Shown in pieces: positions 5,420 through 62,800 of a DNA stretch of 64,000 nucleotides (position 1 is the first letter of the stretch; each line of letters opens with the position of its first letter). Location: positions 64,001 through 128,000 of the forward strand of contig CAWGRW010000010.1 of the NCBI GenBank assembly GCA_963825135.1. The letters run 5' to 3'. The translations under genes were made by a program, and so were the position numbers. The notes under the pieces are model-generated. The model worked only from the letters and a program-made list of their open reading frames with translations. It searched no databases and was not told the origin of the DNA. Origin of the DNA: an uncultured bacterium. Its GTDB lineage: Bacteria; Desulfobacterota_D; UBA1144; Nemesobacterales; UBA2774.

Positions 5420-5760
5420 TCTTCCCCTCCTCCTCATTAGAAGGGGGAACAGTTGCAAGCGTAGTGAAACGAAGCGCGGCAATCTCGTCTTTTCTTGCCC
5501 GACATTACAGAATTTGCGTTAAGAAAATCGATTGTACGAGCGTTAAGAATCTTCCGCGGGGTGGGGTGGAATTGGAAGATTTAGCGAGTACATGAGATTT
5601 TTAGCAAATTCTGTAGTCGGAATGATTTTTGCTTCTTTTCATCAAGGAAAAGAAGGATAAATAAAATAGCCTTTCACCTTTCTAGTCTTTTCTTTTCGAA
5701 TGATCACGCTATGTATCTTCATCCAGGAAAAGAAGAAAATGAAAATTGCATTTCTCCTTT
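5420..5760 (+). repeat. Mosaic palindromic repeat array
   Basis: Core hairpin CCGACATTACAGAATTTGC...GCAAATTCTGTAGTCGG at 5499-5620 plus CTTCTTTTCATCAAGGAAAAGAAG tail. Confidence 0.9.
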
Positions 5761-5846
5761 ATTTGTATTTGATAATGCAACCTACGCCGCCATCCCCTCC
5801 CCCTTCTCCTTGATTTTTCCCCATCATTTAATACAATTTGTCCCTC

Positions 5847-6173
5847 ATGAACAAACTGATTCTCGCCCTCTTCTTAATAATGCCCTTCGCGGTCCCCGCA
5901 TTCTCCGAGCCCGCTCCCTACCAGAACGTCTGCGAGGTGAAGGAAATCATCCAATGCAGCTACGTAGGCAAGAAAGCCTATTTGAAATCAGACGAGAACA
6001 AATCCGTCCTGGGAAAGATCATCGCCGTCGTATGGAAGGAAAAAGGCGACCCCGTCGAGGTCAACCCGACCCTCACCTCGACCCAGAGCGGATATTACTA
6101 CGTAATCGCCCCGACCTCTCAGAAGTCCGACCGGATCATCGTCAGCATCAACCGCATCGCCGTCCTCCAGTAA
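5847..6173 (+). CDS. Secreted hypothetical protein
   Basis: Signal peptide MNKLILALFLIMPFAVPAFS. Confidence 0.7.
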   Translation: MNKLILALFLIMPFAVPAFSEPAPYQNVCEVKEIIQCSYVGKKAYLKSDENKSVLGKIIAVVWKEKGDPVEVNPTLTSTQSGYYYVIAPTSQKSDRIIVSINRIAVLQ

Positions 6174-6185
6174 CCACCGCCAATA

Positions 6186-6720
6186 TGTCATTCCCGAATG
6201 CCTTAATCGGGAATCCAGTCTTTAATCTTGTCATTGCGAGCGGAGCTTATGAAGTAAGCGATGCGCGGCAATCTAGTCTTTAGTCTTTTCCTCTCCCGAC
6301 ATTACAGAATTTGCGGTACACAGTGTGTGCGAGTATACGATCCATCTCTACCTCCGCTGCTTAATACCGGAAACGTAGCCCAGCCGTTCGCCCTGAGCGT
6401 GTCGAAGGTCAGAATTAGCGCCCTTCCCCTGAGGGGGGAAGGTACGGATGGGGGTGTTACCTTCAGTTAAATCATTCGAATCACCTTTGTCCTTCCGACA
6501 TTACGACGTTGCGTTAGAAAATCGAGACGAGCGTTAAGAATCTTCCGCCGGGTGGGGCGGAATCGGAAGATTTAGCGAGTACATGAGATTTTTAGCACAA
6601 TTATGTAGTCGGATGATTTTTGCTTCTTTGTCATCAAGGACAAAGAAGATATCAATATTCGTCTTTGCTTTTTCTTTGTCTTTTGAAAGAGTGGACACTC
6701 AAAGCGAGCCCCGGCAATCC
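6186..6720 (+). repeat. Mosaic palindromic repeat array
   Basis: GTCATTCCCG, GTCATTGCG, CCGTTC..GTCGAAG and CCCTTCCCC modules plus a core copy at about 6495-6612. Confidence 0.9.
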
Positions 6721-6740
6721 CATCTGTTATCCTTATACAT

Positions 6741-7310
6741 ATGAAGAAACTCTGCACCGGCTGCCTCTACATCGGCTACGAGGACCGCACCTCACACGGC
6801 AGCGTCAAGACCGAATCCGCCCTCTGGACGGTCGCCTTCGTCCTCGCCTTCGCCGGGGTCTTCGAGAAAGACCTCTGGCTCCCGGCGACTATCGTATTCG
6901 CCGTCGCCTTCTTCTACACGCTCACTCTATTCAGAATAAAGATATGCGTCTGCCCCCGCTGCGGCCGCGACGCCATGATCCCGCTCAATACTCCCAAAGC
7001 GGACGAGATCATCGGGGAAAATCATCTCCCGCTCCCCCGCGAATTCGCCGACCCCGCGCGCACCTTCTGGGGCTTCACGCTGCGCGACGTGCTCCTCATT
7101 CTCACATCCATCCTCGTCGCCATAATCCTCTACAAAGAATTCGCTAATCATTCTTTCCTGACTTTCCCCTGTCCCTTCGAGGCGAACGGGTCCAGAGCAG
7201 AAGTCTGTCATTTCGAATCGTTGCTCGAGGTTACAAAGAAATTTTGCAGTCCAATTAGATTTCAGCCTCAACACGATTTTAGCAAATCTGTGAGGAGGAT
7301 ACGGGTGTGA
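6741..7310 (+). CDS. Membrane protein with split CxxC...CxxC zinc site; true 3' end may lie near 7150
   Basis: CTGC, two TM helices, CPRC, third TM; the tail runs into degenerate repeat DNA. Confidence 0.65.
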   Translation: MKKLCTGCLYIGYEDRTSHGSVKTESALWTVAFVLAFAGVFEKDLWLPATIVFAVAFFYTLTLFRIKICVCPRCGRDAMIPLNTPKADEIIGENHLPLPREFADPARTFWGFTLRDVLLILTSILVAIILYKEFANHSFLTFPCPFEANGSRAEVCHFESLLEVTKKFCSPIRFQPQHDFSKSVRRIRV

Positions 7311-10889: not shown

Positions 10890-12262
10890 TTTTCCCCTCC
10901 CCCTACACAAGGGAGAGGGTGAGGGTGGGGGTTACCACGTTAATCTTATCTTTAACCTTTAATTCCTTCCCCCCTGCGAGGGGGAAGGTTAGGATGGGGG
11001 GCACCTTGGCCAAATAAATCAAAACCGGCTTTGCCTTTCAATTCATTTCGCTCGATCGTGCCTGAACAAAAATAGTGCGAGCGGGGGTGTCATTTCGAGC
11101 TTAAGGCGAGAAATCTATCTTTGCCTTTTCTTCCCCGACATTACAGAATTTGCGTCACATTGTTTCCCTCCCCCTTCCCAAGGGGGAGGGTGTGGGTGGG
11201 GGTTTACCTTATCAGCCGTCAATCCAGAGAGTCTTTCTCTTTCCAAGGTCAGCAGTCCAATTGAAAGATTTTAGCTTAAACATAAGATTTTTAGCGTAAT
11301 TCTGTAGTCGGATTGATTTTTGCTTCTTTTCATCAAGGAAAAGAAGGATAAAAAAATAGCCTTTCACCTTTCTTTGTCTTTCCGAAAGGCCCACGGCAAT
11401 CTCTCCCTCCCCTCCGCCGCGAGAATAATAGAAGCGATACCGAACCCGTTCACCCTGAGCGCACACGAAGTGTGCCGTCGAAGGGCACATTATCCGTCAT
11501 TGCGAGGCTTCGCAGAAGCCGCGGCAATCTCATATTTAAAATTTATTTCCCTCCCCATCACATACCCGAGAGGGGGAGGGTTAAGGGTGGGGGTGTCACC
11601 TTTCATACATTAAATCATGCTTAAGTCTTTCTCTTCCCCGACATTACAGAATTTGCGTCACATTGTTTCCCTCCCCCTTTTCAAAGTGGGAACGGATGCG
11701 AGCGTGCAAGCATTCAGTCGCTCTTCCAACAAAGTCCGTGAGGCATATTAACCCCCCGCTCGACGATGCCTGAGCCAAAATAGTTCGGGTGGGGGTTTAC
11801 CTTATCAGCCTATCAATCCAGAGAGTCTTTCTCTTCCCGACATTACAGAATTTGCGTTAAGAAAATCGATTGTACGAGCGTTAAGAATCTTACGTGGGCA
11901 GGGGTGGGATCGAAAGATTTAGCGAGTACATGAGATTTTTAGCAAATTATGTAGTCGGATGATTTTTGCTTCTTTTCATCAAGGAAAAGAAGGATAAAAA
12001 AACAGCTTTTCACCTTTCTTTTGTCTTCCCGAAAGGCCCGCGGCAATCTCTCCCCCCCTCCGCCGCGAGAATAATAGAAGCGATTCCCTCCCCCGTTCGC
12101 CCCGAGCCTGTCAAAAGGTCGAAGGGTGGACGCGAGTCATTTCGAGCACAGCGCGGCAACCACATATTTAATATTTTTCCCCTCTCCCCTTTTTTGAGGG
12201 CGGGAGAGGGCCAGGGTGAGGGGGTACCATATCGTAGGAGCGGCTTCCAGCCGCGATTCATT
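10890..12262 (+). repeat. Mosaic palindromic repeat array with internal tandem duplication
   Basis: Several CCCTCCCC..GGGTGGGGG modules, core at about 11837-11958, GTAGGAGCGGCTTCCAGCCGCG (GTAG-type REP) near 12234. Confidence 0.9.
11691..11782 (+). mobile_element. About 90-nt nested insert, type C
   Basis: AAC-GGATGC-loop-GCATTC-(A/G)GTCGC plus tail; also at 21612 and as a variant at 16732; empty equivalents near 11167 and 37023. Confidence 0.65.
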
Positions 12263-16657: not shown

Positions 16658-17262
16658 ATCCGTTCACCCCGAGCGCACACGTAGCGTGCTGTCGAAGGGT
16701 CTTCTTTAATTTCCCTCCCCCTTAGAGGGGGAACGCTTCGAGCAAGCAAGCAGTCGGTCGCTCTTCCAACAAAGTCCGTGAGGCATATTAACCATCTCCC
16801 GCTTGCGAGCTTGGCGAGATGGTACCTGAGCCACGAAGATAGTTCGAGTGGGGGGTGGTTACGATTACACTTCAACCAATCCAGAGAAGTTCGGCTCTTT
16901 TCTTCCCGACATTACAGAATTTGCGTCAAGAAAATCGATTGTACGAGCGTTAAGAATCTTACGTGGGCCGGGGCGGGATCGGAAGATTTAGCGAGTACAT
17001 GAGATTTTTAGCAAATTATGTAGTCGGATGATTTTTGCTTCTTTTCATCAAGGAAAAGAAGGATAAAAAAAACAGCCTTTCACCATTCTAGTCTTTTCAT
17101 GATCTTTTCATAGACCACTTTAGGTGCACGGTGTTTTCAGAACCCACACTATGTGCGTTCATCAAGGAAAAGAAGGATGAAAAAAACAGCTTTTCACCTT
17201 TCTTTATCTTTCCGAAAGGCCTACGGCAATCTCTCCCTCCCCTCCGCCGCGAGAATAATAGC
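16658..17262 (+). repeat. Mosaic palindromic repeat array
   Basis: Core at about 16906-17027; right end overlaps the MFS gene 3' end. Confidence 0.9.
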
Positions 17263-18507: not shown

Positions 18508-19287
18508 TTGTCATTCCCGGCCGGGCGGGGAAACAAGTATATCGCAGGAGCGGCTTCCAGCCGCGGCACATGCGTAGTAAGGCACAGAACCCGTGCTCGT
18601 GCACATTCCCTCCGAATCTCTTCCGGTCATACCGGCAACGAAGCCAGACCCGTTCGTTCTGAGCTTGTCGAAGAACAATTGCGAGCGAGTGAGCAATTGG
18701 TCGCCCTTGCTAACCTTGTATCGAAGATTATTGAAACGGTCAATGAGCCAATGATATGTCAGCGGCGACACTCCACCCGTTCACCCCGAGCGCGTACGAA
18801 GTGTGCTGTCGAAGGATCTTCCTTAATTCCCTCCCCCTCAATAGGAGGGGGGAGGGTTAGGGTGGGGGTGTACCTAGATATGTAAAACCGTTCGTGCTGA
18901 GCTAGTCGAAGCACGTCACCGACATTACAGAATTTGCGTTAAGAAAATCGATTGTACGAGCGTTAAGAAATCTTAGTGGGCTGGGGTTGAATTGGAAGAT
19001 TTAGCTGAGAACATGAGATTTTTAGCAAATTCTGTAGAGTTCGGACCACATGTGATTTTTGCTTCTTTTCATCAAGGAAAAGAAGGATAAAAAAAACAGC
19101 CTCTCACCTTTCTTTTCTTTTCATTATCTTTTCATAGACCATTTAGGTGCACGGTGTTTTCATTAACCACACTACGTGTGTGGTGTGTGATTTTTGCTTC
19201 TTTGTATCCAGACAAAGAAGAAAATAATATTGTCTTTGTCTTTTCTTTGTCTTTCCGAAAATCGCCACAGAATCGCGGCAATTCCCC
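18508..19287 (+). repeat. Mosaic palindromic repeat array
   Basis: Core at about 18919-19038; array ends at the stop codon of the next gene. Confidence 0.9.
18674..18763 (+). mobile_element. About 90-nt nested insert, type G
   Basis: AAC-AATTGC-gagcgagtga-GCAATT-GGTCGC plus unique tail, placed after GTCGAAG; empty equivalent at 33441-33469. Confidence 0.6.
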
Positions 19288-21410: not shown

Positions 21411-22130
21411 GTCATTGCAACGGTTCTGATGAATAAGAAGAACCGGTCGCTGCTGGCTGATTGCATTCAAGCTGCTGTGCCATGGGACGAACCTGCCAAA
21501 TAAAAGCTGCGAAGCAGCGCGGCAATCTCGCCTTTTCTTCCCCGACATTACAGAATCTGCGGCGGGTGCTCACCCGCACATTAATTTCCCTCCCCCCTTT
21601 TTTAAAGTGGGAACGGATGCGAGCGTGCAAGCATTCGGTCGCTCTTCCAACAAAGTCCGTGAGGCATATCAACCCCCCGCTCGACGATGCCTGAGCCAAA
21701 ATAGTTAGGATGGGGGTGGTCACCTTACCCCCCAATCAAGCAAGAAAGCCTTTTCTTCCCCGACATTACAGAATTTGCGGCGGGCACACACAATGTGTGT
21801 CTCTACGATTCTTCCGTAACTCCTCTGCTCAACCAGCAACGAAGCCCAACCCGTCCGTGCTGAGCTAGTCGAAGCACGTTACCGACATTACAGAATTTGC
21901 GTCTAGAAAATCGATTGTACGAGCGTTAAAAATCTTCCACGGGCTGGGGTTGAATTGGAAGATTTAGCGAGTACATGAGATTTTTAGCACAATTCTGTAG
22001 TCGGATGATTTTTGCTTCTTTGTATCCAGACAAAGAAGAAAATAGAATTGTCTTTGCTTTTTCTTTGTCTTTTCGAGAACCACACTACGTGTGTGATTTT
22101 TGCTTCTTTTCATCAAGGAAAAGAAGAGGT
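21411..22130 (+). repeat. Mosaic palindromic repeat array
   Basis: Contains inserts A and C, three CCGACATTACAGAAT joints and a core at about 21882-22003. Confidence 0.9.
21419..21508 (+). mobile_element. About 90-nt nested insert, type A
   Basis: AA(C/T)-GGTTCT-loop-AGAACC-GGTCGC plus tail, inside GTCATTGC...GCAATCT; also at 24578, 30322, 57832, 59414 and partially near 44390. Confidence 0.65.
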
Positions 22131-22979: not shown

Positions 22980-23460
22980 GCACTCCGGAATTTGCGGCGA
23001 GTGAGCACCCGCGGGCATATCATCTCTACCTCCCCCTCAGCTCAATCAACTCTCGTAGCCAAACCCGTTCGTGCTGAGCTAGTCGAAGCACGTTACCGAC
23101 ATTACAGAATTTGCGTTAAGAAAATCGCGTGTTTAAGCGTTAAGAAATCTTTGAGCAGTCCAATTGAAAGATTTTAGCTTAAACACAAGATTTTTAGCGT
23201 AATTCTGTAGTCGGATGATTTTTGCTTCTTTGTATCCAGACAAAGAAGAAAATATATTGTCTTTGCTTTTCATAATCCAAACTACGTGTGTGATTTTTGC
23301 TTCTTTTCATCGAGGAAAAGAAGGATTAAAAAAATCATCCTTTCACCTTTCTTTTCTGTCTTTCCGAAAGATCACATTGCGCTTGCGTCGCAGCTGGCCT
23401 GTCCAAGACTCGATCCTACAAGGGTTTGTCATTTCGAGGTAAAGCCGAGAAATCCATCTT
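22980..23460 (+). repeat. Mosaic palindromic repeat array (covariant core variant)
   Basis: Core at about 23096-23213 with a GTGTTTAAGC/GCTTAAACAC stem. Confidence 0.9.
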
Positions 23461-24389: not shown

Positions 24390-25130
24390 CGCCCGCACAC
24401 ACGTAGCGTGTTCCACGATCCTTCCGTATGTCTTCCGCCTAACCCGGCGACACGCCGCCCCGTTCACCCCGAGCGCACACGAAGTGTGCTGTCGAATGGT
24501 CTTCCTTAATTCCCTCCCCCTCAACAGGAGGGGGGAGGGTCAAGGGTGGGGGTGCACCTCAATATTTTTGTCATTGCAATGGTTCTGAGGAATAAGAAGA
24601 CCCGTTCGTGCTGGCTGATTGCATTCAAGCTGCCGTGCCGTGGGACGAACCTGCCAAATAAAATGTGTGAGAGCAGCGCGGCAATCTCGTCTTTCTTCCC
24701 GACATTACAGAATCTGCGGCGGGTGAGCACCCGCGGGCATACGATCTCTATTCCCTCCTCTGCCTAATCAACTCCTGAAGCCCAACCCGTTCGTGCTGAG
24801 CTGTCGAAGCACGTTACCGACATTACAGAATTTGCGTAAAGAAAATCGATTGTACGAGCGTTAAAAATCTTACGTGGGCCGGGGCGGGATCGGAAGATTT
24901 AGCGAGTACATGAGATTTTTAGCACAATTATGTAGTCGGATGATTTTTGCTTCTTTTCATCAAGAAAAGAAGGAATAAAAGCCTCACCTTTTCTTTGTCT
25001 TTCCTTTGCTTCTTTTCATGTCCTGAATTCATCAAGGAAAAGAAGGATCAAATCAAATAGCCTTTCACCTTTCTTTGTCTTTCCTCCGTCCGTACGCAAG
25101 GTGTATGGAGAACGCACAGGCCCCGCTTTC
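24390..25130 (+). repeat. Mosaic palindromic repeat array
   Basis: Begins at the stop codon; core at about 24817-24939. Confidence 0.9.
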
Positions 25131-27787: not shown

Positions 27788-28425
27788 CTCACCCCGAGCA
27801 CACACGCACGTAGTGCGTTTCTACGATCCTTCCGTAACTCCTCTGCCATCGCCAGGGAATGAGCCCAACCCGTTCACCCTGCGCGCACACGAAGCGTGCT
27901 GTCGAAGGGTTTCTTCCTTTCAATTTCCCCCTTAGAAAAAGGAGGGCTAGGGAGGATTTAGTTTTACCCCGTTCGTGCTGAGCTTGTCGAAGCACGTTAC
28001 CGACATTACAGAATTTGCGTTAAGAAAATCGATTGTACGAGCGTTAAAAATCTTCCACGGGACGATTCCGAACTAGCGAGGAATCGGACGCCCTCTCCTA
28101 TCCGCACGACGTTAGTTAGCCACGGACATCGCTAAACTATCGCTCCGATGGGGTTGAATTGGAAGATTTAGCGAGTACATGAGATTTTTAGCACAATTCT
28201 GTAGTCGGATGATTTTTGCTTCTTTTCATCAAGGAAAAGAAGGATAAAAAAACGGTCTTTCACCTTTCTTTTCTTTTGTCTTCTCATAATCCACACTTCG
28301 CGTGTTCATCAAGGAAAAGAAAGATTAAAAAAACAGCCTTTCACCTTTCTTTTGTCCTTTCGAAAGATCACATTGCGCTTGCGTCGCGGCTGCAACCCGC
28401 TCCTACAGGGTTTGTCATTGCCAGC
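27788..28425 (+). repeat. Mosaic palindromic repeat array
   Basis: Core with a type B insert at about 28000-28208. Confidence 0.9.
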
Positions 28426-30013: not shown

Positions 30014-30872
30014 CGCGCACGCACGTAGTGCGTTTCTATGATCCTTCCGAAACTCTTACGCTCAAACCGGCAACCTCGCCCAACCCGTTCGTGCTGAGCT
30101 AGTCGAAGCACGTTACCGACATTACAGAATTTGCGGCACACAATGTGTGCTCATATACGATTCTTCCGTAATTCCTCCGCCATCGCCAGGCAATTAGCCA
30201 AACCCGTTCACCCCGAGCGCACACGAAGTGCGCTGTCGAAGGGTCCTCCTTAATTCCCTCCCCCTCAATAGGAGGGGGGAGGGTCGAGGGTGGGGGTGTA
30301 CCTTAATCATTCTGTCATTGCAATGGTTCTGATGAATAAGAAGAACCGGTCGCTGCTGGCTGATTGCATTCAAGTCGCTATGCCATGGGACGAACCTGCC
30401 AAATAAAATCTGAGAGAGAAGCGCGGCAATCTAGTTTTTTCTTTATCTTCCCCGACATTACAGAATTTGCGTTAAGAAAATCGATTGTACGAGCGTTAAA
30501 AATCTTACGTGGGCTGGGGTTGAATTGGAAGATTTAGCGAGTACATGAGATTTTTAGCAAATTATGTAGTCGGATGATTTTTGCTTTTTTTCATCAAGGA
30601 AAAGAAGGATAAATAAATGGCCTTTCACCTTTCTTTGTCTTTCCTTCGTCCGTACGCAATGTGTATGGAGAACGCACAGGCTCCGATTGGGGCGGAATCG
30701 GAAGATTTAGCGAGTACGTGAGATTTTTAGCAAATTCTGTAGAGTCCTTTCGGAAACCACACTATGTGTGTGATTTTTGCTTCTTTTCATCAAGGAAAAG
30801 AAGGATAAAAAAACAGCTTTTCACCTTTCTTTTGTCTTTCCCGAAAGCCTTTATCGGGAATCCAGCCTTTAA
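30014..30872 (+). repeat. Mosaic palindromic repeat array
   Basis: Begins at the stop codon; insert A; core at about 30452-30573. Confidence 0.9.
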
Positions 30873-40359: not shown

Positions 40360-41100
40360 CGCGCACGCATAATGCGTTTTTGCGATTTCTGCCATACTCC
40401 TCAGACCTCCCGAGAGATCATACATTCCCGGCTCTAGGAGTGGCCTCCAACCGTCATATATCTTTAAGCAGTCATTGCGAGGCTTCGCAGAAGCCGCGGC
40501 GGGTGAGCACCCGCGGGCATACGATCTCTAACATCCCCCTCAGCTCAACCCAGTCCGCTCACCCCGTACTCTTAATTCCTTCCCCCTGGAGGGGGAACTG
40601 CTTCGAGCAAGCGAGAAGTAGGACGCCCTGACCCTTTAGCCACTTGGGTAACTGTGACCATGCTCTCCGATTTGTCGAGCATGTGGTGAGGATGGGGGTG
40701 TCGCCTTTCACTCATTCAATCATCCGGTAAGTTTTTCTCTTCCCGACATTACAGAATTTGCGTTAAGAAAATCGATTGTACGAGCGTTAAGAATCTTACG
40801 TGGGGTGGGGTGGAATTGGAAGATTTAGCGAGTACATGAGATTTTTAGCAAATTATGTAGTCGGAATGATTTTTGCTTCTTTTCATCGAGGAAAAGAAGG
40901 ATTAAAAAACAGCCTTTCACCTTTCTTTTATCTTTTCGAAAGACCACACTACGTGTGTGATTTTTGCTTCTTTGTATCCAGACAAAGAAGGAAATAATAT
41001 TGTCTTAGCCATTTCCTTATCTTTGTCTTTTCTTTCCGAAAAATCACATTATGCGTGTGTCGCGGCTGGCGGACTTGATCCGGGAACTCTCTCCTACAAA
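40360..41100 (+). repeat. Mosaic palindromic repeat array
   Basis: Begins at the stop codon; core at about 40743-40864. Confidence 0.9.
40596..40684 (+). mobile_element. About 90-nt nested insert, type E
   Basis: AAC-TGCTTC-gagcaagcga-GAAGTA-GGACGC plus unique tail; empty equivalent at about 10965-11000. Confidence 0.6.
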
Positions 41101-41807: not shown

Positions 41808-42515
41808 ATCCCGTTCACCCCGAGCGCACACGAAGTGTGCAGTCGAAGGGTGCGAAATTATTTCCCTCCCCCTCAATAGGAGGGGGAACGGTTGCAAGCA
41901 AGCGCGCAACTGGTCACTCTCTCAGCGAAGTCACCGAAGTACATTAACTTCCGGCTTTACGCTGCCTAAACCAAAACAGCAAGGGTGGGGGTGTACCTAG
42001 ATATGTAAACCCGTTCGTGCTGAGCTAGTCGAAGCACGTTACCGACATTACAGAATTTGCGGCGGGTGAGCACCCGCAGGCATGTGATCTCAACCATTCT
42101 TCCGCTCGACTACGGTCTGGTCAACTTCGAACAAGCGGGAGAGCACCAATCATTCTGATCACTCCTGAGCCGTCGAAGGGTGATTATTCCCGACATTACA
42201 GAATTTGCGTGAAGAAAATCGATTGTACGAGCGTTAAAAATCTTACGCGGGCTGGGGTGGAATTGGAAGATTTAGCGAGTACATGAGATTTTTAGCACAA
42301 TTCTGTAGTCGGATGATTTTTGCTTCTTTTCATCAAGGAAAAGAAGGATAAATAAAACAGCCTTTCACCGTTCTAGTCTTTTCATTATCTTTTCATAGAC
42401 CACTTTAGGCGCACGGTGTTTTCATAACCCACACTACGTGTGTTCATCAAGGAAAAGAAGGATAAAAAAAACAGCCTTTCACCTTTCTTGTCTTTCTCTT
42501 TACCTTTCCGAAATA
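41808..42515 (+). repeat. Mosaic palindromic repeat array
   Basis: Core at about 42190-42311. Confidence 0.9.
41887..41980 (+). mobile_element. About 90-nt nested insert, type D
   Basis: AAC-(G/A)GTTGC-aagcaagcgc-GCAACT-GGTCAC plus tail; also at 44061, truncated at 5448; empty sites at e.g. 36716 and 62455. Confidence 0.65.
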
Positions 42516-43784: not shown

Positions 43785-44965
43785 TCGTTGCGAGGTCCCT
43801 GCGGAACCGCGCCAATCTCGTCTTTCCTTCCCGACATTACAGAATTTGCGGCGGGTGAGCACCCGCGGGCATACGATCTCTAGCATCTCCAATCCTGTCA
43901 TTTCGAGCAGCGCGAGAAATCTATCTTTCCCTTTTAATTTCCCCCTTAGAAAAAGGGGGACTAAGGGGGATTTAGTCGTTAAACCGTTCACCCTGGGCGC
44001 ACACGAAGTGTGCTGTCGAAGGGTGCTTCCTTTAATTCCCTCCCCCTCAATAGGAGGGGGAACAGTTGCAAGCAAGCGCGCAACTGGTCACTCTCTCAGC
44101 GAAGTCACCGAAGTACATTAACTTCCGGCTTTACGCTGCCTAAACCAAAACAGCACGGGTGGGGGTGTACATCAATCTTTTTGTCATTGTGAGCGTAACG
44201 AACGAATGCGAGAGAAGCGAGGCAATCTCGTCTTTTCCTTCCCGACATTACAGAATTTGCGTTAAGAAAATCGATTGTACGAGCGTTAAGAATCTTTGGG
44301 CAGTCGAATCGGAAGATTTAGCGAGTACATGAGATTTTTAGCACAATTCTGTAGTCGGATGATTTTTGCTTCTTTTCATCAAGGAAAAGAAGAATAAGAA
44401 GAACCGTCCTCTGGCAGATTGCATTCAAGCTGCTGTGCATGGGACGAACCTCCAAATAAAATCCGCAAAGAAGCGAAGCAATCTCGCCTTTCCTTCCCGA
44501 CATTACAGAATTTGCGGCGGTCACCACAACGCGGGCATATCATCTGCGAGACTTCGCGCAACCAGCGCGGCCCAACCCGTCCGTCTGAGCTGTCGATGCT
44601 CATTCCCGACATTACAGAATTTGCGTATAGAAAATCGATTGTACGAGCGTTAAAAATCTTACGCGGAACGAATGCAAGCGAGCGCGCATTCGGACGCCCT
44701 CTCCTATCCGCACGACGTTAGTTAGCCACGGACATCACTAAACCATTGCTCCGATGGGGTGGAATCGGAAGATTTAGCGAGTACATGAGATTTTTAGCAC
44801 AATTATGTAGTCGGATGATTTTTGCTTCTTTTCATCAAGGAAAAGAAGGATAAAAAAAATATCCTTTCACCTTTCTAGTCTTTTCATTATCTTTTCATAG
44901 ACCACTTTAGGTGTACGGTGTTTTCACAAACCACACTACGTGTGTTCACCAAGGAAAAGAAGAAG
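43785..44965 (+). repeat. Mosaic palindromic repeat array
   Basis: Cores near 44242 and 44606; inserts D, partial A and B. Confidence 0.9.
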
Positions 44966-49933: not shown

Positions 49934-50790
49934 GCGGCACACACACGCACGTAGTGCGTTTCTACGATTCCATCAGACTTCCTTAGCTCAACCCGGCAAT
50001 CATAGCGTTTTCGTACTTCAGCGGCGACACGCCGCCCCCTTCACCCTGAGCGCACACGAAGTGTGCTGTCGAAGGGCGCATTATCCGTCATTTCGAGCTG
50101 AAGGCGAGAAATCTATCTTTTACCTTTGCTTTTGTTTTTCCCCGACATTACAGAATTTGCGTCAAGAAAATCGATTGTACGAGCGTTAAGAATCTTACGT
50201 GGGATGGGGTGGGATCGGAAGATTTAGCGAGTACATGAGATTTTTAGCAAATTATGTAGTCGGATGATTTTTGCTTCTTTTCATCAAGGAAAAGAAGATA
50301 ATAAAACAACCTTTACCGTCTTTGCTTTTTCTGTGTCTTTTCGAAAGTTCACAGCAGAACCGTGTGTCTCTACCGATTCTTCCGTGACTCCTCAGCTCAA
50401 CCAACAAGCGAAGCCAAACCCGTTCGTGCTGAGCTAGTCGAAGCACGTTACCGACATTACAGAATTTGCGTATAGAAAATCGATTGTACGAGCGTTAAGA
50501 ATCTTACGTGGGCTGGGGTGGAATCGGAAGATTTAGCGAGTACATGAGATTTTTAGCAAATTATGTAGTCGGATGATTTTTGCTTCTTTTCATCAAGGAA
50601 AAGAAGGATAAATAAAACAGCCTATCACCTTTCTTTGTCTTTTCAGTGTCTTTTCGAGAACCACACTACGTGTGTTCATCAAGGAAAAGAAGGATAAAAA
50701 AATATCCTTTCACCTTTCTTTGTCATTTCGAAAAATCACATTACGTTTGTGTCGCGGCTGGAAGCCGCTCCTACAGGGTTTGTCATCGCC
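49934..50790 (+). repeat. Mosaic palindromic repeat array
   Basis: Cores near 50142 and 50451. Confidence 0.9.
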
Positions 50791-52856: not shown

Positions 52857-54420
52857 TGCGGCACACAATGTGTGCTCATATATGATCCTTCCGAAACTCT
52901 TACGCTCAAACCAGCAACGTAGCCAAACCCGTTCGTGCTGAGCTTGTCGAAGCACGTACACACATATTGCGGCACACAATGTGTGCTTTACGATCCTTCC
53001 GAAACTCCTACGCTCAAACCAGCGACATAGCCAAACCCGTTCGTGCCGAGCTTGTCGAAGCACGTTACCGACATTACAGAATTTGCGGCGGGTGAGCACC
53101 CGCGGGCATACGATCTCAAACATCTCCTTTCCTGTCATTTCGAACGCAGTTCAGCGTGCGCGCAACTGGTGACGTTGTTGATTGCAAGTAACTCTAATTG
53201 ACACCGTACACGATCTGCACAATCCAAAACGAGAAATCTGTCTTTGCCTTTGGTATTAATTCCCTCCTTAAAAAACGATCGAACGGGCGAGCATTCGGAC
53301 CTATCTCAAAGAGCACAGAAGTAACTTACCTTCCAGCTCCATCCTTCTGAAGTCGTTAGGGGGATTAGCTTTACCCCGTTCGTGCTGAGCTTGTCGAAGC
53401 ACGTACACACATATTGCGGCACACAATGTGTGCTTTACGATCCTTCCGAAACTCCTACGCTCAAACCAGCGACATAGCCAAACCCGTTCGTGCTGAGCTT
53501 GTCGAAGCACGTTACCGACATTACAGAATCCGCGGCGGGTGAGCACCCGCGGGCATACGATCTCAAACATCTCCTTTCCTGTCATTTCGAACGCATGTTG
53601 CAGCGTGCGCGCAACTGGTCGACGTTGGTTGATTGCAAGTAACTCTAATTGACACCGTACACGATCTGCACAATCCAAACGAGAAATCTGTCTTTTGCCT
53701 TTGGTATTAATTCCCTCCTTAGAAAAAGGAGGGCTAGGGAGGATTTAGCTTTACCCCGTTCGTGCTGAGCTTGTCGAAGCACGTTACCGACATTACAGAA
53801 TTTGCGGCGGATGAGCACCCGCGGGCATACGATCTCGAGCATCTCCTTTCCTGTCATTTCGAACGCACGGGAGAAATCTGTCTTTTGCCTTTCCGACATT
53901 ACAGAATTTGCGTTTAGAAAATGGATTGTACGAGCGTTAAGAATCTTACGCCGTTCGAGCGAATGCAAGTCGAAGTACTGTTACCGAGCGTTGCGAGAAT
54001 TAGCGTCGAATCGCGCCGATTGTACGAGCGTTAAGAATACTTCATGGAAACCGAATGCAAGCGAGCGCGCATTCGGACACCCTCTCCTATCCGCACGACG
54101 TTAGTTAGCCACGGACATCGCTAAACTATTGCTCCGATGGGGCGGAATTGGAAGATTTAGCGAGTACATGAGATTTTTAGCACAATTCTGTAGTCGGATG
54201 ATTTTTGCTTCTTTTCATCAAGGAAAAGAAGGATAAAAAAACAGCCTCTCACCGTCTTCTAGTCTTTTCATCTGATCTTTTCATAGACCACTTCACTAGC
54301 GTGCACGGTGTGCTTTCATAATCCAACACTATGCGTGTTCATCGAGGAAAAGAAGAGAGCAATCTCGCCTTTAATTGTTTCCTTTGTCTTGCCTTTTCGG
54401 AAGACCACACTATGTGTGCC
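52843..54420 (+). repeat. Mosaic repeat array with about 400-bp tandem units (noisy sequence)
   Basis: Units start near 52928, 53376 and 53755. Confidence 0.85.
53143..53229 (+). mobile_element. About 90-nt nested insert, type H
   Basis: Inside GTCATTTCG...GAGAAATCT; second copy at 53590; empty site at 53853-53880. Confidence 0.5.
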
Positions 54421-57774: not shown

Positions 57775-58606
57775 TCCCCATATTAATGGGAGGGTCCGGG
57801 TGGAGGTCTACCTCATTATTTTTGTCATTGCAACGGTTCTGATGAATAAGAAGAACCGGTCGCTGCTGGCTGATTGCATTCAAGCTGCTGTGCCATGGGA
57901 CGAACCCGCCAAATATAATCCGCGAAGCAGCGCGGCAATCTCGTCTTTTGCAATTAATTCCCTCCCCCTCAATAGGAGGGGGGAGGGTCAAGGGTGGGGG
58001 GTTTACATTACAATCCAATCAACCAAGAAAGTCTTCTCTTCCCGACATTACAGAATTTGCGTCAAGAAAATCGATTGTACGAGCGTTAAGAATCTTACGT
58101 GGGCTGGGGTTGAATTGGAAGATTTAGCGAGTACATGAGATTTTTAGCAAATTCTGTAGTCGGATGATTTTTGCTTCTTTTCATCAAGGAAAAGAAGGAT
58201 AAATAAAACAGCTTTTCACCTTTCTTTGTTTTTTCTTTTCGAAAGTTCACACAACGTGTGTCTCTACGACTCTTCCGTGACTCCTCAGCTCAACCAACAA
58301 GCGAAGCCAAACCCGTTCGTGCTGAGCTAGTCGAAGCACGTTACCGACATTACAGAATTTGCGTCAAGAAAATCGATTGTGCGAGCGTTAAGAATCTTAC
58401 GTGGGCTGGGGTTGAATTGGAAGATTTAGCGAGTACATGAGATTTTTAGCAAATTATGTAGTCGGATGATTTTTGCTTCTTTTCATCAAGGAAAAGAAGG
58501 ATACAAAAAACATCCTCTCACCTTTCTAGTCTTTTCATAAAACACACAATGTGTGCTTCTTTTTTGCTTTATCTCACCAAGCACAATGAAACACATCGCG
58601 GCAATC
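57775..58606 (+). repeat. Mosaic palindromic repeat array
   Basis: Insert A; cores near 58042 and 58344; ends at the next stop codon. Confidence 0.9.
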
Positions 58607-59405: not shown

Positions 59406-60270
59406 GTCATTGCAATGGTTCCGATGAATAAGAAGAACCGGCCGCTGCCGGCTGATTGCATTCAAGCTGCCGTGCCATGGGACGAACCTGCCAAATAAAA
59501 TCTGTGAGAGCAGCGCGGCAATCTCGCCTGTTCCTTTAATTCCCTCCCCCCTCCATAAGGGGGGAGGGTGCGGGTGGGGGGTTTACCTTAATATGCCTGT
59601 CAGCCTTTTCTTCCCCGACATTACAGAATTTGCGGCGCACACGCACATAGTGCGTTTCTATGATTCTTCCGTAACTCCTACGCTCAAACCAGCGACGTAG
59701 CCCAATCCGTTCGCCCCGAGCGCACACGAAGTGTGCCGTCGAAGGGTCTCTTCCCTTCAATTTCCCCCTTAGAAAAAGGGGGATTAAGGGGGATTTAGTC
59801 TTTTCTTTTTCCCCGACATTACAAAATTTGCGGCGGGTGCTCACCCGCACATTAATTCCCCTCTCCCTTGAGGGGAGAGGGTGAAGGGTGAGGGTGTACC
59901 TTATCACTACTATCAATCTAGAAGTCTTTTCTTCCCGACATTACAGAATTTGCGTTAAGAAAATCGATTGTACGAGCGTTAAAAATCTTCCACGGGGTGG
60001 GGTAGAATTGGAAGATTTAGCGAGTACATGAGATTTTTAGCAAATTATGTAGTCGGATGATTTTTGCTTCTTTTCATCAAGGAAAAGAAGGAATTAAATT
60101 AGCCTTTGTCTTGTCCTTCCTTAGTTTTGTCTTTCCGAAAGATCACACTACGTGTGTTCATCAAGGAAAAGAAGGATTAAAAAAATATCCTTTCACCTTT
60201 CTTGTCTTTTCATTACCTTTTCATAGACCATTTAGGCGCACGGTGTTTTATAAACTACACTACGTGTGTG
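59406..60270 (+). repeat. Mosaic palindromic repeat array
   Basis: Insert A; core at about 59935-60056. Confidence 0.9.
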
Positions 60271-60373
60271 CCTTTTCTCAGTCTCTTTCTCGGCGTCAGC
60301 CAATCCCGGGATCCCTTCTCCCCCGCAACAAATTCCCCTCAAAAAGAGTTAATATATCCCGAGGAGGCATCAC

Positions 60374-60607
60374 ATGAAGACAGACACATATACGAAAATC
60401 ATTCTCACGGTAATAGCGGTCGCGCTCTGGGGCATATTCCTGAGCCCCTACTTCCGCGCGAACGATTCGGCGGCGACGACCGGGATCATCGACGTCAATC
60501 TGAAGCAGATCGACGGCTCGAGCATAAACAAAGTTCTCGACGTGAACATAGAAGAGGTGAACGGAAGCTCCGTTTACAACTCGCTGCCCGTCGAAATCAA
60601 GCAGTGA
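60374..60607 (+). CDS. Small membrane-anchored protein with duplicated DVN(L/I)xx(I/V)(D/N)GSS motif
   Basis: SD GGAGG; DTYTKIILTVIAVAL TM segment. Confidence 0.75.
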   Translation: MKTDTYTKIILTVIAVALWGIFLSPYFRANDSAATTGIIDVNLKQIDGSSINKVLDVNIEEVNGSSVYNSLPVEIKQ

Positions 60608-60687
60608 GCTAACTCGTTACCCGCTCCGGCGGCATTGAATAGACGCCTCGTATATCGTATAATTGTGGCACTGTAAGGTCTTGGAGG

Positions 60688-61470
60688 ATGTCCGAAATGC
60701 CGCATATACGTGGATTGGCAATCTTTTTTATAACGCTGCTGTCCATATCAGCCGTCGCGGTATTGATAAGCGCGGATACCTCTCAGGCCGTGGTCACCTT
60801 CACATCTAACCGCTCGCAGTTCTTCAACGACAACCCCGGACTTCTCTTGCAGACATTCGAAAGCGGCAACGTCGCGCAGGGAGAGATCGTGGGTTGCAAC
60901 ACCCCTGTGGACAGCAATTCAAACGACGATTGTTTTTCTCCCGGAGACATACTGCCGGGAATAGCGTTCAACACTGACCCCGACTTCGGTGGTACTATCC
61001 TTTCCGGGCCGTTCCTTTTTTCGAACCTGAATCCCGAGAAAGTCCTATTGCCCGACGGCTCCCTCCAGAAGAGCGTGATAACGTTTCCCGGGAATAGTGT
61101 AAATGCCGCGGGTCTCGAGCTGGGCTGCCTGTTCGATCAGGGTTTCGGACTTCCATGCACCGGACAGACCATGCTCGTTCAGGTTTTCGGAGCGGGAAAT
61201 GCCCTGCTGGGCGAAACCATAGTCCCGGTTGACAGCACATTCGACACGTTTGTCGGGATCACCTCCGATGCGCTTATCGAAAGGATTACATTTATAGACG
61301 CTGACCTCATTACACAGTTGAGCTTCAACGCCGTCGAGAAGGTGTATTTCCCGAACGTTAACATTCAGCGAGTCCCCGCGCTCTCCCAACTGGGCACGGC
61401 CGCACTCGTGCTCATCCTCGCCGCCGCCGCCTTCATCAGGCTCCGCCGCAAGACCGTGCTCCGCTACTGA
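60688..61470 (+). CDS. IPTL-CTERM sorted surface protein
   Basis: Signal peptide; C-terminal VPALSQLG + TM + RLRRK. Confidence 0.8.
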   Translation: MSEMPHIRGLAIFFITLLSISAVAVLISADTSQAVVTFTSNRSQFFNDNPGLLLQTFESGNVAQGEIVGCNTPVDSNSNDDCFSPGDILPGIAFNTDPDFGGTILSGPFLFSNLNPEKVLLPDGSLQKSVITFPGNSVNAAGLELGCLFDQGFGLPCTGQTMLVQVFGAGNALLGETIVPVDSTFDTFVGITSDALIERITFIDADLITQLSFNAVEKVYFPNVNIQRVPALSQLGTAALVLILAAAAFIRLRRKTVLRY

Positions 61471-61572
61471 CCCTTGTGCGTCTCCTTCACCACTAAACAT
61501 CCCTGTCCTCCCCTTCCCCTCCTCGTGCACCGGCGGTATCATTACTGAAAATCCGCACGGAGGCTGCGCGCA

Positions 61573-62304
61573 ATGCCGGGATTCCATCACCCGCTCAAGA
61601 ACGGACACACGCACGAAGAGATAACGGAGATATTCCGCCGCCACTGGGACGTATACAGAAAAGTGCTCGAGCACGACTACATGTCCCACAAAGCCGTGTA
61701 CGGAAGATTGCGCGACATACTCAACACCGAAATCGGCCCCTCGTTCTCGTTCGCCGACCTCGCCTGCGGCGACGCGTACTGGTCCTCGCGCTGCCTCTCG
61801 GAAACGGAAATCGGCGAATACACGGGCATAGACCTCTCCGAATGGGCGCTCGAGCTCGCGAAGAAGGAGCTCGAAAGGATTCCCGTTGAACCCAATCTCG
61901 TCACAGGCAACTTCGAGGAGTTCGATAAATATATGGACTCTCCGCCCGACGTCGTGTGGGTGGGGCTCTCGGTCCATCACCTGGTGACGGACGAGAAAGG
62001 CAGGTTTATGAAAAAGGTACGGGGCACGCTCCCGAAAGACGGCGTGTTCATGATATACGAGCCTACGCTCACCGAGGGCGAAGACAGGACGGCGTACTTC
62101 GATAGATTCAGCGAAGTGGTCAGGCGCACCTGGACCGGACTCACCCCCGAGGAGCTCGACATAGTTTTCGACCACGTGAAAAAATCTGATTTGCCGGAGC
62201 AGCCCTCCGACTGGATAAGTCTCGGCAGACAGGCGGGATTCAGCACCGCGGAGGAGGTCTACACGGACCCGAGCGGCCTCTACACCGTATTCAAATACGA
62301 GTAG
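61573..62304 (+). CDS. Class I SAM-dependent methyltransferase
   Basis: DLACGD, YTGIDLS, LSVHHL. Confidence 0.9.
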   Translation: MPGFHHPLKNGHTHEEITEIFRRHWDVYRKVLEHDYMSHKAVYGRLRDILNTEIGPSFSFADLACGDAYWSSRCLSETEIGEYTGIDLSEWALELAKKELERIPVEPNLVTGNFEEFDKYMDSPPDVVWVGLSVHHLVTDEKGRFMKKVRGTLPKDGVFMIYEPTLTEGEDRTAYFDRFSEVVRRTWTGLTPEELDIVFDHVKKSDLPEQPSDWISLGRQAGFSTAEEVYTDPSGLYTVFKYE

Positions 62305-62800
62305 CGCGCACACGCACGTAGTGCGTTTCTACGATTCCATCAGACTTCCTTAGCTCAACCCGGCAATCATGGCGTTTTCGTACTTCAGCGGCGATACGCC
62401 GCCCCCTTCACCCTGAGCGCACACGAAGCGCGCCGTCGAAGGGTCTTCCTTAATTTCCCTCCCCCTCAATAGGAGGGGGGAGGGTTAGGGTGGGGGTGTA
62501 CCTAGATATGTAAACCCGTTCGTGCTGAGCCAGTCGAAGCACGTTACCGACATTACAGAATTTGCGTTAAGAAAATCGATTGTTCAAGCGTAAAGAAATC
62601 TTGTGGGGCGGAGTCCAATTGAAAGATTTTAGCTTAAGACATAAGATTTTTAGCGTAATTCTGTAGTCGGATGATTTTTGCTTCTTTTCATCAAGGAAAA
62701 GAAGGATAAATAAAACAGCCTTTCACCTTTCTAGTCTTTTCATGATCTTTTCATAGACCATCTAGATGCACGGTGTTTTCATATTCCACTCTATGTGTGT
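62305..62800 (+). repeat. Mosaic palindromic repeat array
   Basis: Begins at the stop codon; variant core at about 62547-62670. Confidence 0.9.

Follow-up and report, generated by a model that had tools for sequence, protein, structure and literature searches.

Neisserial dRS3 elements are repeats of roughly 20 nt that lie in inverted orientation on either side of variable units; they are not known to have a replication polarity. REP sequences (REP, BIME and REPIN arrangements) typically form inverted doublets and have RAYT transposases of the Y1 HUH type. Insertion sequences of the IS200/IS605 family have been found to place the left end on the 3' side of a defined tetra- or pentanucleotide and to target the lagging-strand template, according to the portion of PMC5027513 drawn on here. 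Integrons have the integrase IntI and attC sites with the triplet AAC/GTT. The sites measure 57–141 bp and have unpaired features (PMC5371416, in the part used here), and clusters of attC sites without an integrase, termed CALIN, are known with up to 114 sites (PMC4889954, likewise in part).

In this study we analysed a window, a stretch of 64,000 nucleotides on contig C10 of an uncultured member of Candidatus Dadabacteria (genome G000, 94% complete). Its repeat arrays consist of non-coding units chained head to tail, and the repeat family is restricted to one Candidatus Dadabacteria lineage. The dRS3 mosaics resemble them in having a ~20-nt joint between variable short intergenic units near accessory genes, but are without a long covarying hairpin. 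REP mosaics are likewise intergenic assemblies of short GC-rich hairpins in loose order, lineage-specific, vertically persistent and non-autonomous, the hairpin having a conserved single-stranded leader; unlike REPs, the main unit here is far larger (~170 nt), with covarying stems and an orientation following replication. With attC arrays and CALIN, compared here by their described features, the units share bulged ~120-nt hairpins with a variable apex, presented by one strand, the folded one, which separate accessory segments, are alike within a genome and fold on the leading-strand template; the array is also very large with a sharp start. IS200/IS605 elements and PATEs are similar in their strand- and orientation-specific insertion beside a short sequence without further target duplication, in hairpins near both ends and in a fork-tied orientation (PMC5027513, same portion).

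Extent and architecture of the units

The polar region extends from window position ~5470 to the end of contig C10, over at least 155 kb. No unit was present in C10:1–69 kb, and the first core unit of the window (5495..5665) marks the left boundary. The window part of the region (5470..62800, + strand) comprises 32 repeat blocks between accessory genes on both strands. In a motif-free blastn comparison of the window with C10, using HSPs of ≤1500 bp, 13,768 bases or 24.0% of 5420–62800 had at least five other copies in C10, distributed over those 32 blocks, each ≥100 bp long. Since 47% of this interval also lies outside ORFs of ≥150 aa, the sequence-only reading that repeats occupy over a quarter of the window was about right. 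An assembly artefact is unlikely as the source of the arrays, because these arrays recur, with unchanged polarity, at syntenic positions in independently assembled relatives.

Each unit opens with an invariant 19-nt joint, U5 (CGACATTACAGAATTTGCG), found in 43 copies in the window, all on the + strand (for example at 58043..58061), with varying left and right partners. The joint is followed by one of at least four bodies, the main one combining a hairpin of ~122 nt with a short tail hairpin. At the 43 joints, left partners fell into two classes and right partners into four, the latter being core (24), G8-type (12), CACAC-hairpin type (5) and CCCTCCCC-type (2); short bodies without a partner arm follow 19 joints. 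The reference core unit (58038..58207, + strand) consists of the joint, the ~122-nt hairpin, the linker ATGATTTTTGC and a tail hairpin with a 9-bp stem. The core hairpin is imperfect (CCGAC...GTCGG), bulges on one arm and has a variable apex that accommodates inserts of ~90 nt.

Further core units were located by profile on the + strand at 6492..6658, 11833..12001 (within the array at 10.9–12.3 kb), 16902..17070 (in a spacer ~2.9 kb longer in G009 and G003), 18915..19093, 21878..22050, 24813..24980, 30447..30619, 33636..33804, 37102..37273, 40739..40909, 42187..42355, 44237..44398, 50138..50306, 50447..50615, 58340..58509 and 59931..60101. Two + strand units have a variant apex (23092..23258 and 62543..62713), and loop inserts were present in + strand units at 27996..28253 (~90 nt, in the apical loop), 35577..35857, 37415..37672 and 44602..44857. 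The longest joint-plus-body chain of the window (52857..54355, + strand) starts with CACAC-hairpin/D2 units, continues with units composed of joint, G8 and GTCATTTCG, and then has a core unit with a loop insert (53889–54240, + strand, by profile). Such head-to-tail chaining through a shared joint is a feature of these units that the portion of PMC5027513 drawn on here does not describe for IS200/IS605.

The pairing of the core hairpin is maintained by compensatory changes. Of 1423 cells 94.6% pair, and in a comparison of five genera 22 of the 34 pairs had changed on both sides, compared with 12.6 ± 1.6 in a shuffle control (none of 500 reached 22) and 5–10 when the partners were slid. As G.U/U.G cells numbered 65 and A.C/C.A cells 14, the + strand is the better folder; one G.U pair is retained in 34 of 42 sequences. 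The loop and linker sequences that stay invariant across the five genera are GCGTTAAGAAAAT (two copies in the 5' arm), TTTAGC (two in the 3' arm) and GTGATTTTTGC. The triplet that is conserved reads GAC/GTC, or GGC/GCC in the more distant G036.

Covarying stems, conserved loops and a retained G.U pair are what a functional RNA usually shows, and the unit might act in + strand transcripts, for example as a small RNA or by affecting their processing or stability. We consider this highly improbable. Conservation starts exactly at CCGAC, next to two unrelated left partners and with no conserved promoter upstream, and the tail hairpin has no U-run terminator 3' of its stem. No Rfam family matched the window at gathering score, the best weak match reaching 20 bits. 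Unit orientation is independent of the neighbouring genes, divergent spacers being no poorer in units, and an RNA function would leave unexplained both the co-orientation over 155 kb and the flip at the skew switch described below.

The main rival to the reading that we favour is an integron-like cassette platform with a non-canonical site, which we regard as unlikely. In it, the core unit would correspond to an attC site. Viewed on the − strand each cassette would consist of gene(s) followed by the hairpin, and crossover would take place at the hairpin's 3' base (..CTGTAAT|GTCGG); the + strand would act as the folding 'bottom' strand, and a recombinase other than IntI would add and remove cassettes. 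Consistent with this, the sites are co-oriented on one strand within a single region with a sharp start, the bulged hairpin falls within the length range of attC sites and has their unpaired features (PMC5371416, part used here), and the putative crossover coincides with the hairpin base. Within a genome the units closely resemble each other, the segments between them (0.3 to about 11 kb) vary among species beside the boundary, and the cargo consists of accessory genes, many of which belong to no known family. The folding strand lies on the leading-strand template, as for 25 of 30 sedentary chromosomal integrons in the source excerpt used, and CALIN provide a precedent for clusters without integrase (PMC4889954, in part). 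However, the triplet is not AAC/GTT, each unit adds to an attC-like hairpin a conserved linker and a tail hairpin, genes lie on both strands (66 + and 60 −) with no co-orientation, the many joints with short armless non-coding bodies are not predicted by attC × attC exchange, and gene order is conserved across species. An integron integrase was not found in G000, where the best TIGR02249 matches (88 bits at most, against a cut-off of 265) are Xer-like genes far from the array. None was found at E ≤ 1e-30 in 33 family genomes either, which is weak evidence as 14 control genomes were also silent. Neither end of the region was found to have a recombinase.

Orientation and replication

In the comparison of the window with C10, 4529 of 4541 HSPs were on the same strand, whereas REPs are typically inverted doublets; with 99.7% direct matches and only 12 on the opposite strand, reverse-complement copies are far from equally frequent. 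Matches to the core-unit profile were on the + strand in 37 of 37 cases in the window and in 78 of 78 in C10:66–224 kb. Exact counts in the window were 21 + and 0 − for the 24-nt tail CTTCTTTTCATCAAGGAAAAGAAG, and likewise no − copy was found for GGGTGGGGG (15 +), GTCATTTCG (11 +), GTCATTGCG (6 +), GTCATTCCCG (5 +), CCCCCTTAGAAAAAGG (3 +) or CACGTAGTGCG (5 +), the last being, like GCGGGTGAGCACCCGC and CACACTACGTGTG, self-complementary, so that both strands match at one site and orientation cannot be read from it. When mismatches were tolerated, the +/− counts in the window were 41/0 for U5, 37/0 for the tail, 39/1 for D2, 18/0 for E3, 13/2 for B5, 12/0 for C6 and 6/0 for A7. Units were present in 12 of 33 ++, 10 of 23 convergent, 8 of 27 −− and 11 of 21 divergent spacers. 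The named modules were found at the coordinates given in the sequence-only reading and, by the exact, mismatch-tolerant and motif-free counts, lie nearly all on the + strand; that reading had placed every module on the + strand whatever the arrangement of the flanking genes. Its loose order, with small modules leftward and core and tail at the right end, was also confirmed. Its statement that inverted partners are missing holds inside the arrays, but the 3' arm of the core hairpin is itself an inverted copy of the joint, and the GTCATT-type module forms inverted doublets outside the polar region.

Unit orientation appears to depend on the direction in which the DNA is replicated and not on neighbouring genes. 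In G011 four − units lie on the positive-skew side (2.2248–2.2510 Mb) and 15 + units on the negative-skew one (2.330–2.479 Mb); the flip coincides with the skew switch at 2.25–2.28 Mb, which the arrays flank closely. The rule that the sense strand is the C-rich strand fits 19 of 20 matches in this genome, where array-free skew samples were +0.095 and +0.182 on one side vs −0.138 and −0.143 on the other. The large arrays of G000 are all located in the negative-GC-skew replichore and read +, one-sidedly and several hundred kb from the skew switch; five exceptional HSPs read − in negative-skew DNA. The opposite replichore of G000 holds no units, hence no flip is observable there. G014 has eight − units within 1.64–2.23 Mb, where five of five skew samples were ≥0, and the rule mostly fits in G014 and G013. 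In G036 five of 12 loci fit, six break the rule and one is near zero. The sense-strand non-ORF skew is −0.078 in the arrays vs −0.020 to −0.035 elsewhere on the replichore, and because the arrays themselves are C-rich on the sense strand, an argument from local skew is partly circular. The replication-strand link suggested earlier is supported by the flip in G011 and the single replichore in G000, while G036 does not fit. As its composition is that of the lagging strand, the best-folding strand is the leading-strand template.

The mirrored orientation across the switch in G011, with arrays closely flanking it, would also be expected of a polar chromosomal function selected in the host. The units would then bind a protein, their orientation mattering to terminus-side replication or segregation, and be Ter- or KOPS-like but much larger and structured, or organise a terminus-side domain. 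The invariant loops and linker in five genera, which fit two predicted tandem protein-binding sites, are in line with such a function, as are the persistence of the family in 20 of 24 family genomes and a conservation exceeding that of the flanking genes (unit copies of G009 are 92–99% identical to the G000 unit, orthologous flanks 85–90%). Nevertheless we find it quite improbable. Copy number and position vary strongly at orthologous spacers of sister species, four family genomes, including the closed G015, gave no unit match, the large arrays of G000 lie on one side only and far from its switch, and the skew rule fails in G036. Moreover, we know of no function that requires about 100 elements of 170 nt.

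Turnover in related genomes and a possible route of insertion

Comparison of orthologous spacers, which the sequence-only reading had proposed, showed that module sets, copy number and position vary between sister species across a syntenic polar region. The spacer at C9:2.4556 Mb measures 85 nt in G005, a single joint-like anchor there directly adjoining the convergent gene, and 461 nt in G000, where the extra DNA starts immediately behind CCGAC, its last letters are CGAC, and the anchor is retained; G008, G007, G004 and G003 have differing module sets there. The same kind of turnover was observed at a second orthologous locus, and some orthologous spacers are empty. Gene order is kept between species that are 75–88% identical, which argues for slow dynamics and against the reading that we favour.

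The arrays might also have grown without any transposition, by tandem duplication in place together with unequal crossing-over and gene conversion among the direct repeats, the single orientation persisting through selection against inversions within a replichore. This would fit the concentration of units in one region, their homogenisation within a genome, the paralogous genes of the region (Peptidase_S13, collagen/DUF7151, IPTL-CTERM and LexA-like) and the array-length indels that separate near-identical alternative contigs; no clean joint-to-joint boundaries were found in three such indels, which speaks against the reading that we favour. We judge it very unlikely, as solo units in the same orientation occupy unrelated spacers 100–400 kb away (C9:194, 228, 411 and 425 kb, and 2.46–2.71 Mb), one solo-unit spacer has no insert in G005, the boundary falling precisely at the joint, and species differ in the modules found at the same spacer.

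A candidate mobilising enzyme for the units was not found, which counts against insertion. G000 gave no match to Y1_Tnp, RVT_1, IS110 (Transposase_20) or TnpB, so neither the RAYT/Y1 genes of REPs nor the TnpA of IS200/IS605 was detected. Only 5 of 32 family genomes have Y1 genes, none of the 15 Y1 loci examined was directly beside a unit, and no protein family recurs beside units in G036, G011, G013 or G014. Among the genes earlier proposed to be flanked by modules, Y1, IS110 and reverse transcriptase were not found in G000 and DUF559 is a single gene inside the array, while only a GIY-YIG gene is bracketed. This nuclease gene, of 98 residues, has inverted copies of one small module on both sides. 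RNA-mediated propagation received no support, the RVT_1 match being absent from a genome that is 94% complete.

As a plausible but tentative reading, we propose that the units are non-autonomous repeats of an undescribed kind, which insert at the joint via single-stranded DNA and whose orientation is determined by replication. The closer identity of unit copies than of their flanking genes, given above for G009, also counts in favour of this reading. New material would enter within CGAC|ATT of the joint, in one orientation only, and leave a joint on each side. Because of this one-way entry, together with the orientation that follows replication, strand-specific single-stranded insertion appears the most likely route. 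The units would be inserted by an enzyme acting in trans, whose logic would most likely be akin to that of IS200/IS605-derived elements, REPs with RAYT transposases and integron attC sites. IS608 uses the lagging-strand template, whereas the better-folding strand of the units is placed on the leading-strand template, which speaks against the proposal. The data show the polarity, the chaining of units, the covariation, the turnover at orthologous spacers and the flip at a skew switch; we infer a single-stranded intermediate, such an enzyme and present-day mobility. Once placed, the ~100 direct repeats, which are roughly 95% identical, would cause intervening gene segments to be gained and lost.

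Polarity and extent of the arrays

The genome under study (G000; 3.13 Mb, 17 contigs, 94% complete), in which the window corresponds to C10:64001-128000, was searched with the asymmetric modules named in the sequence-only reading. Exact and mismatch-tolerant counts recovered each of them in the window, nearly all on the + strand as described there. The 24-nt tail gave 21 + and 0 - copies in the exact count. With mismatches tolerated, the counts (+/-) were 41/0 for the joint U5, 37/0 for the tail, 39/1 for D2, 18/0 for E3, 13/2 for B5, 12/0 for C6 and 6/0 for A7; self-complementary modules hit both strands at one site and are uninformative on orientation. The polarity also held when reverse-complement copies were looked for by a motif-free blastn comparison of the window with its contig, C10, in which 4529 matches lay on the same strand and 12 on the opposite one. 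The arrays had been judged to take up over a quarter of their span, in line with our value: 24.0% of window positions 5420-62800, in 32 blocks, has at least five other copies on C10. ORFs of 150 aa or longer leave 47% of the same span uncovered.

A core unit of 203 nt used as query gave 167 matches genome-wide, 96 + and 0 - on C10 and 30 + and 5 - on contig C9, and every small contig was uniform. No core unit was detected in C10:1-69 kb in this search. The first unit lies at window position 5495, and from there the array continues to the contig end at 224 kb. Beyond this polar region a few solo units were found (C9:194, 228, 411 and 425 kb, and 2.46-2.71 Mb), with no core units between 0.43 and 2.45 Mb in G000. 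Small modules are few there and occur in both orientations. Inverted partners, thought to be missing, are rare within the arrays (12 of 4541 matches opposite), and inverted GTCATTTCG doublets exist only beyond the polar region.

The small contigs C1, C2, C6, C11, C13 and C14, and also C3, C7, C12 and C16, duplicate parts of C10 or C9, mostly of the array region, as alternative versions with 92-98% identity; most of the differences are indels within the arrays. One small contig joins C10 near 189 kb to C9:1-14 kb, and C9:1-12.5 kb appears to represent C10:189.5-224 kb in another version. Because of these alternative and linking contigs we consider the polar region to be polymorphic in the sampled population and to extend into C9 to approx. 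86 kb, for which we infer the order of C10 and C9. The region measures at least 155 kb, and approx. 225 kb provided that our reading of the alternative contigs is right.

The cargo genes of the arrays are accessory or of unknown family. Repeated cargo families were observed at C10:188-224 kb, C9:1-20 kb and on C13, comprising Peptidase_S13, collagen-repeat/DUF7151 proteins, small IPTL-CTERM proteins, LexA-like S24 peptidases and lactonase-type propellers. An IS3-family element, with an HTH_28 ORF and an rve integrase-core ORF, lies in the array at window 7962-9064; the relative G009 is without it, with window positions 7847-8068 directly joined to 9097-9314.

Anatomy of the core unit and conservation of its fold

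The 19-nt joint CGACATTACAGAATTTGCG occurs in 43 copies in the window, all on the + strand, and links variable neighbours. Two partners occur on its left, a T/C-rich end (..TCTTTTCTTCC) and the D2 hairpin (..GTCGAAGCACGTTAC). To the right follow the core (n = 24), GCGGGTGAGCACCCGC-type bodies (n = 12), CACAC-hairpin bodies ending in D2 (n = 5) or CCCTCCCC-type bodies (n = 2). The core unit is composed, in this order, of the joint, an imperfect hairpin of approx. 122 nt, the linker ATGATTTTTGC and a tail hairpin with a 9-bp stem. The approx. 122-nt hairpin is closed by CCGAC/GTCGG, and the joint recurs in inverted form as its 3' arm; bulges are found chiefly in the 5' arm, an internal loop of 2-3 nt lies above a basal helix of 4-5 bp, and the apex is variable. 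The same apical-loop insert of approx. 90 nt (..CCGCACGACGTTAGTTAGCCACGGACATCGCTAA..) is carried by five core units of the window (27996-28253, 35577-35857, 37415-37672, 44602-44857 and 53889-54240) and is present too in copies from the relatives G009, G004 and G003. The loose fixed order described earlier was recovered, with core and tail at the right end of an array irrespective of the orientation of the next gene. Between C10:66 and 224 kb units were found in 12/33 spacers of ++ type, 10/23 convergent, 8/27 -- and 11/21 divergent ones.

Conservation was assessed in an alignment of 42 copies from five genera, taken from G000, the relatives G007, G013, G014 and G011, and the more distant G036. 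Standard pairs made up 94.6% of 1423 cells. Changes on both sides were seen at 22 of 34 pairs, compared with 12.6 +/- 1.6 in column shuffles, and the observed value was reached in none of 500 shuffles; when the partners were slid by 1-3 columns, just 5-10 pairs showed such changes. We concluded that the structure of the core unit is under selection. The basal helix reads CCGAC/GTCGG in four genera and GGC/GCC in G036, and the tail hairpin also covaries, with a compensated one-base insertion in G011. A peptide reading of linker and tail, with starts ATG, GTG and TTG, was ruled out, as the G011 copies shift the frame yet keep the hairpin.

Several unpaired stretches are near-invariant, namely two copies of GCGTTAAGAAAAT in the 5' arm, two of TTTAGC in the 3' arm, the G-rich apex with its terminal GGAATT, and GTGATTTTTGC. 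In the same alignment G.U/U.G cells (65, of which 34 at one fixed pair) outnumber A.C/C.A cells (14), and we therefore take the + strand to be the better folder. A role of the unit as RNA is a rival reading that we hold unlikely. At gathering threshold Rfam gave no match in the 64-kb window, the best weak match over two units scoring 20.3 bits against a threshold of 70; Rfam does not hold the attC covariance model of IntegronFinder.

Orientation to replication and turnover at the joint

The unit was present in 25 of 41 genomes searched including G000, and, excluding G000, in 9/9 genomes of the genus and 20/24 of the family; the closed genome G015 is one of those without it. A link of orientation to the replication strand had been proposed, and mapping against GC skew upheld it for G000, G011, G014 and mostly G013, and not for G036. 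The skew of G000 in 50-kb steps is negative from C9:1 to approx. 1.25 Mb, positive to approx. 2.3 Mb and weakly negative thereafter. Every large array reads + in negative-skew DNA, the array region itself having a skew of -0.07. Two points limit this argument: the sense strand of the arrays is itself rich in C (non-ORF skew -0.078, compared with -0.020 to -0.035 in the rest of the replichore), and G000 is without units on the opposite replichore.

The nearly closed genome G011, sampled in 20-kb stretches, has positive skew at 1.12-2.25 Mb (9 of 10 samples) and negative skew from 2.28 Mb round to 1.0 Mb (11 of 11). Four of its units read - at 2.2248-2.2510 Mb and 15 read + at 2.330-2.479 Mb, with one misfit at 569 kb, and array-free samples on either side are consistent with the skew switch. 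In the closed genome G014 eight - units lie at 1.64-2.23 Mb, where 5/5 samples were at or above zero; one + unit at 2.50 Mb lies in weakly negative skew and two matches in near-zero skew. For G036, which belongs to another family, five units fit the rule, six do not and one is near zero. The better-folding strand has the composition of the lagging strand and would therefore be the leading-strand template. A polar function for the host is a rival reading that we likewise hold unlikely.

The dif-like motif CCGATAAGATATATTATGTAAACT was set aside as a marker of the terminus, as it lies 150-250 kb from the skew switches in G000, G011 and G014 and the units of G011 flip elsewhere. It came from a relaxed search with a proteobacterial dif consensus. 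In G000 it is found at C9:2448794 (minus strand), the only other copy being C4:152 on an alternative contig; G011, G014, G013 and G007 have one match each and G003 two, the second weaker with 2 mismatches. The resemblance of GCGTTAAGAA to one arm of the motif is about what chance would give, by our own estimate.

Comparison of orthologous spacers showed that the gene order of window 9.4-21 kb is kept in G009 and G003 (82-88% and 75-84% nucleotide identity, respectively) and that spacer lengths differ. Both relatives have approx. 2.9 kb extra between window positions 16601 and 17234, and directly past the left boundary they carry 15-18 kb absent from G000. Polarity relative to the shared genes is the same in the relatives as in G000. 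Unit copies of G009 are 92-99% identical to the G000 unit, compared with 85-90% for orthologous flanks.

One site was clearly resolved into an empty and a filled state. In G005 the spacer orthologous to G000:C9:2.4556 Mb is 85 nt long and contains, besides a GTCATTGCG module, a single joint-like anchor (CCGAC|ATTCACAGAATCGGCG) abutting the 3' end of the convergent gene. The G000 spacer measures 461 nt; its extra DNA begins directly after CCGAC, comprises ATTACAGAATTTGCG, core, tail and a D2 module, and ends in ..CTCGAC, followed by the same anchor. At this spot G008, G007, G004 and G003 have different module sets and retain the anchor, and a second locus shows similar one-strand turnover of modules among seven species. 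Three indels between near-identical alternative contigs have boundaries that are not clean joint-to-joint, and the joint as insertion point thus rests on one clear case and the chain architecture. Pure duplication is a further rival reading of the arrays that we hold unlikely.

Just left of the array boundary, window 4005-4605 is 93-94% identical in G009 and G004, the adjacent DNA being 79-88% identical. It takes in the 3'-terminal region of a minus-strand operon of three genes that has no Pfam match; one ORF of the operon is lipoprotein-like and carries an HExxH motif.

Candidate enzymes and comparison with known systems

A search for RAYT/Y1, reverse transcriptase and IS110 genes flanked by modules had been suggested. 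In G000, Y1_Tnp (PF01797), RVT_1, IS110 (Transposase_20) and TnpB all gave 0 matches. The best match to the integron integrase model TIGR02249 scored 88 bits (cut-off 265) and fell on Xer-like genes of C9, and none of 33 family genomes matched at E<=1e-30, the control genomes being silent too. Tyrosine recombinases of G000 are confined to C9 and lie far away from the arrays. When 48, 150 and 74 ORFs (the region, its ends and the small contigs) were scanned with Pfam, one IS3-family transposase was the sole recombinase found. Y1 genes are present in 67/101 genomes of the order and in 5/32 of the family, and no unit lay directly beside the Y1 gene in 15 Y1 loci from relatives. No recurrent protein emerged when the 124 ORFs lying up to 1 kb from units in G036, G011, G013 and G014 were clustered.

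GIY-YIG and DUF559 genes flanked by modules had also been suggested. Bracketing was found for the GIY-YIG gene; for DUF559 there is one gene in an array, with a module directly upstream. The GIY-YIG nuclease gene (98 residues, C9:191931-192224, L245:6931-7224), the sole PF01541 match in G000, is bracketed by inverted GTCATTTCG..GAAATCT doublets (L245:6783-6870 and 7234-7315). Homologues occur in 38/101 genomes of the order in 1-6 copies. In all eight loci read, from eight genomes, modules of this type lie within 700 nt of the gene, and in seven they stand on both sides in opposite orientations; at the G010 locus both are on one side. This module is a component of the arrays, which may therefore include a module with its own mobilising nuclease. 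Among the literature matches listed, none linked GIY-YIG with REPIN or RAYT, the lone co-occurrence of 'REPIN' being an unrelated restriction-enzyme paper. The single-copy DUF559 (Vsr-like endonuclease) gene lies within the polar array at G000:C10:214720-215034 (L024:6699-7079), directly downstream of a CCCTCC..GGAGGG..GGATTT module.

In IMG/VR contigs labelled viral (L339-L351) the 32-nt linker plus tail was found at seven loci on four contigs and the joint at six loci; these loci may be chromosomal fragments of this lineage.

The attC sites of integrons are described in PMC5371416 as imperfect hairpins, 57-141 nt long, that have extrahelical bases, a spacer left unpaired and a terminal structure that varies. 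The unit hairpin of approx. 122 nt, with its bulges, internal loop and variable apex, agrees with this description. In contrast, attC has the conserved triplet AAC/GTT at its cleavage site, where the basal helix of the unit is CCGAC/GTCGG, or GGC/GCC in G036; no IntI was found in G000, although CALINs lack IntI by definition; and cassette ORFs are mostly co-oriented with their sites, whereas C10:66-224 kb has 66 + and 60 - ORFs. An integron-like platform is the main rival reading, which we hold less likely than the one favoured below. It is unlikely in our estimate that the elements form a new class of replication-oriented gene-cassette platform, a functional integron analogue of independent origin in Dadabacteria with a recombinase neither IntI nor Y1 transposase. 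On such a platform the terminus-side region would collect accessory gene segments between folded-strand sites of approx. 170 nt, and the sites would be joined via the 19-nt core.

REPINs are inverted doublets and single-copy RAYT (Y1) genes are flanked by their repeats, unlike the arrays, where 12 of 4541 matches are opposite and PF01797 has no match in the genome. IS200/IS605 elements, according to PMC5027513, insert with their left end 3' of a specific tetra- or pentanucleotide and use the lagging-strand template for this. The one clean empty and filled site has an insert that starts after CCGAC and ends in CGAC, with the three other indels unclean, and orientation follows skew in G000, G011, G014 and G013, with the better folder as leading-strand template. 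Literature searches gave no work on genomic repeats of Dadabacteria and nothing relevant on intergenic mosaic elements among the matches listed.

Taken together, the chaining of units through one joint, their uniform orientation, the covariation of hairpins that have conserved single-stranded leaders, the exact boundary at the joint and the link to replication suggest that insertion is strand-specific and proceeds through single-stranded DNA. Since IntI, AAC/GTT, a Y1 gene and inverted doublets are lacking, the elements are kept apart from members of the integron, REP/RAYT and IS200/IS605 groups. We file them as working like systems of these types, through an enzyme not found here. The association of the GIY-YIG gene with its module is a separate lead; its repeat type was likened in the sequence-only reading to repeats of other phyla.

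Bacterial intergenic repeats are usually short, occur as inverted pairs and are indifferent to replication. In this genome about a quarter of a large accessory region consists of a structured element of 170 nt with its companion modules, one-way over more than 150 kb and with one invariant joint; pairing is kept across genera by compensatory change, and orientation is mirrored at the skew switch in a relative. The enzyme, if found, would define either a new system of mobility through single-stranded DNA or a platform that resembles the integron but stands apart from the known integrase family; should there be no enzyme, a polar function of the chromosome would be a candidate role for the elements. 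In either case the arrays mark out hypervariable DNA at which assemblies of these uncultured genomes break, and their direct repeats are a ready route to gene gain and loss.
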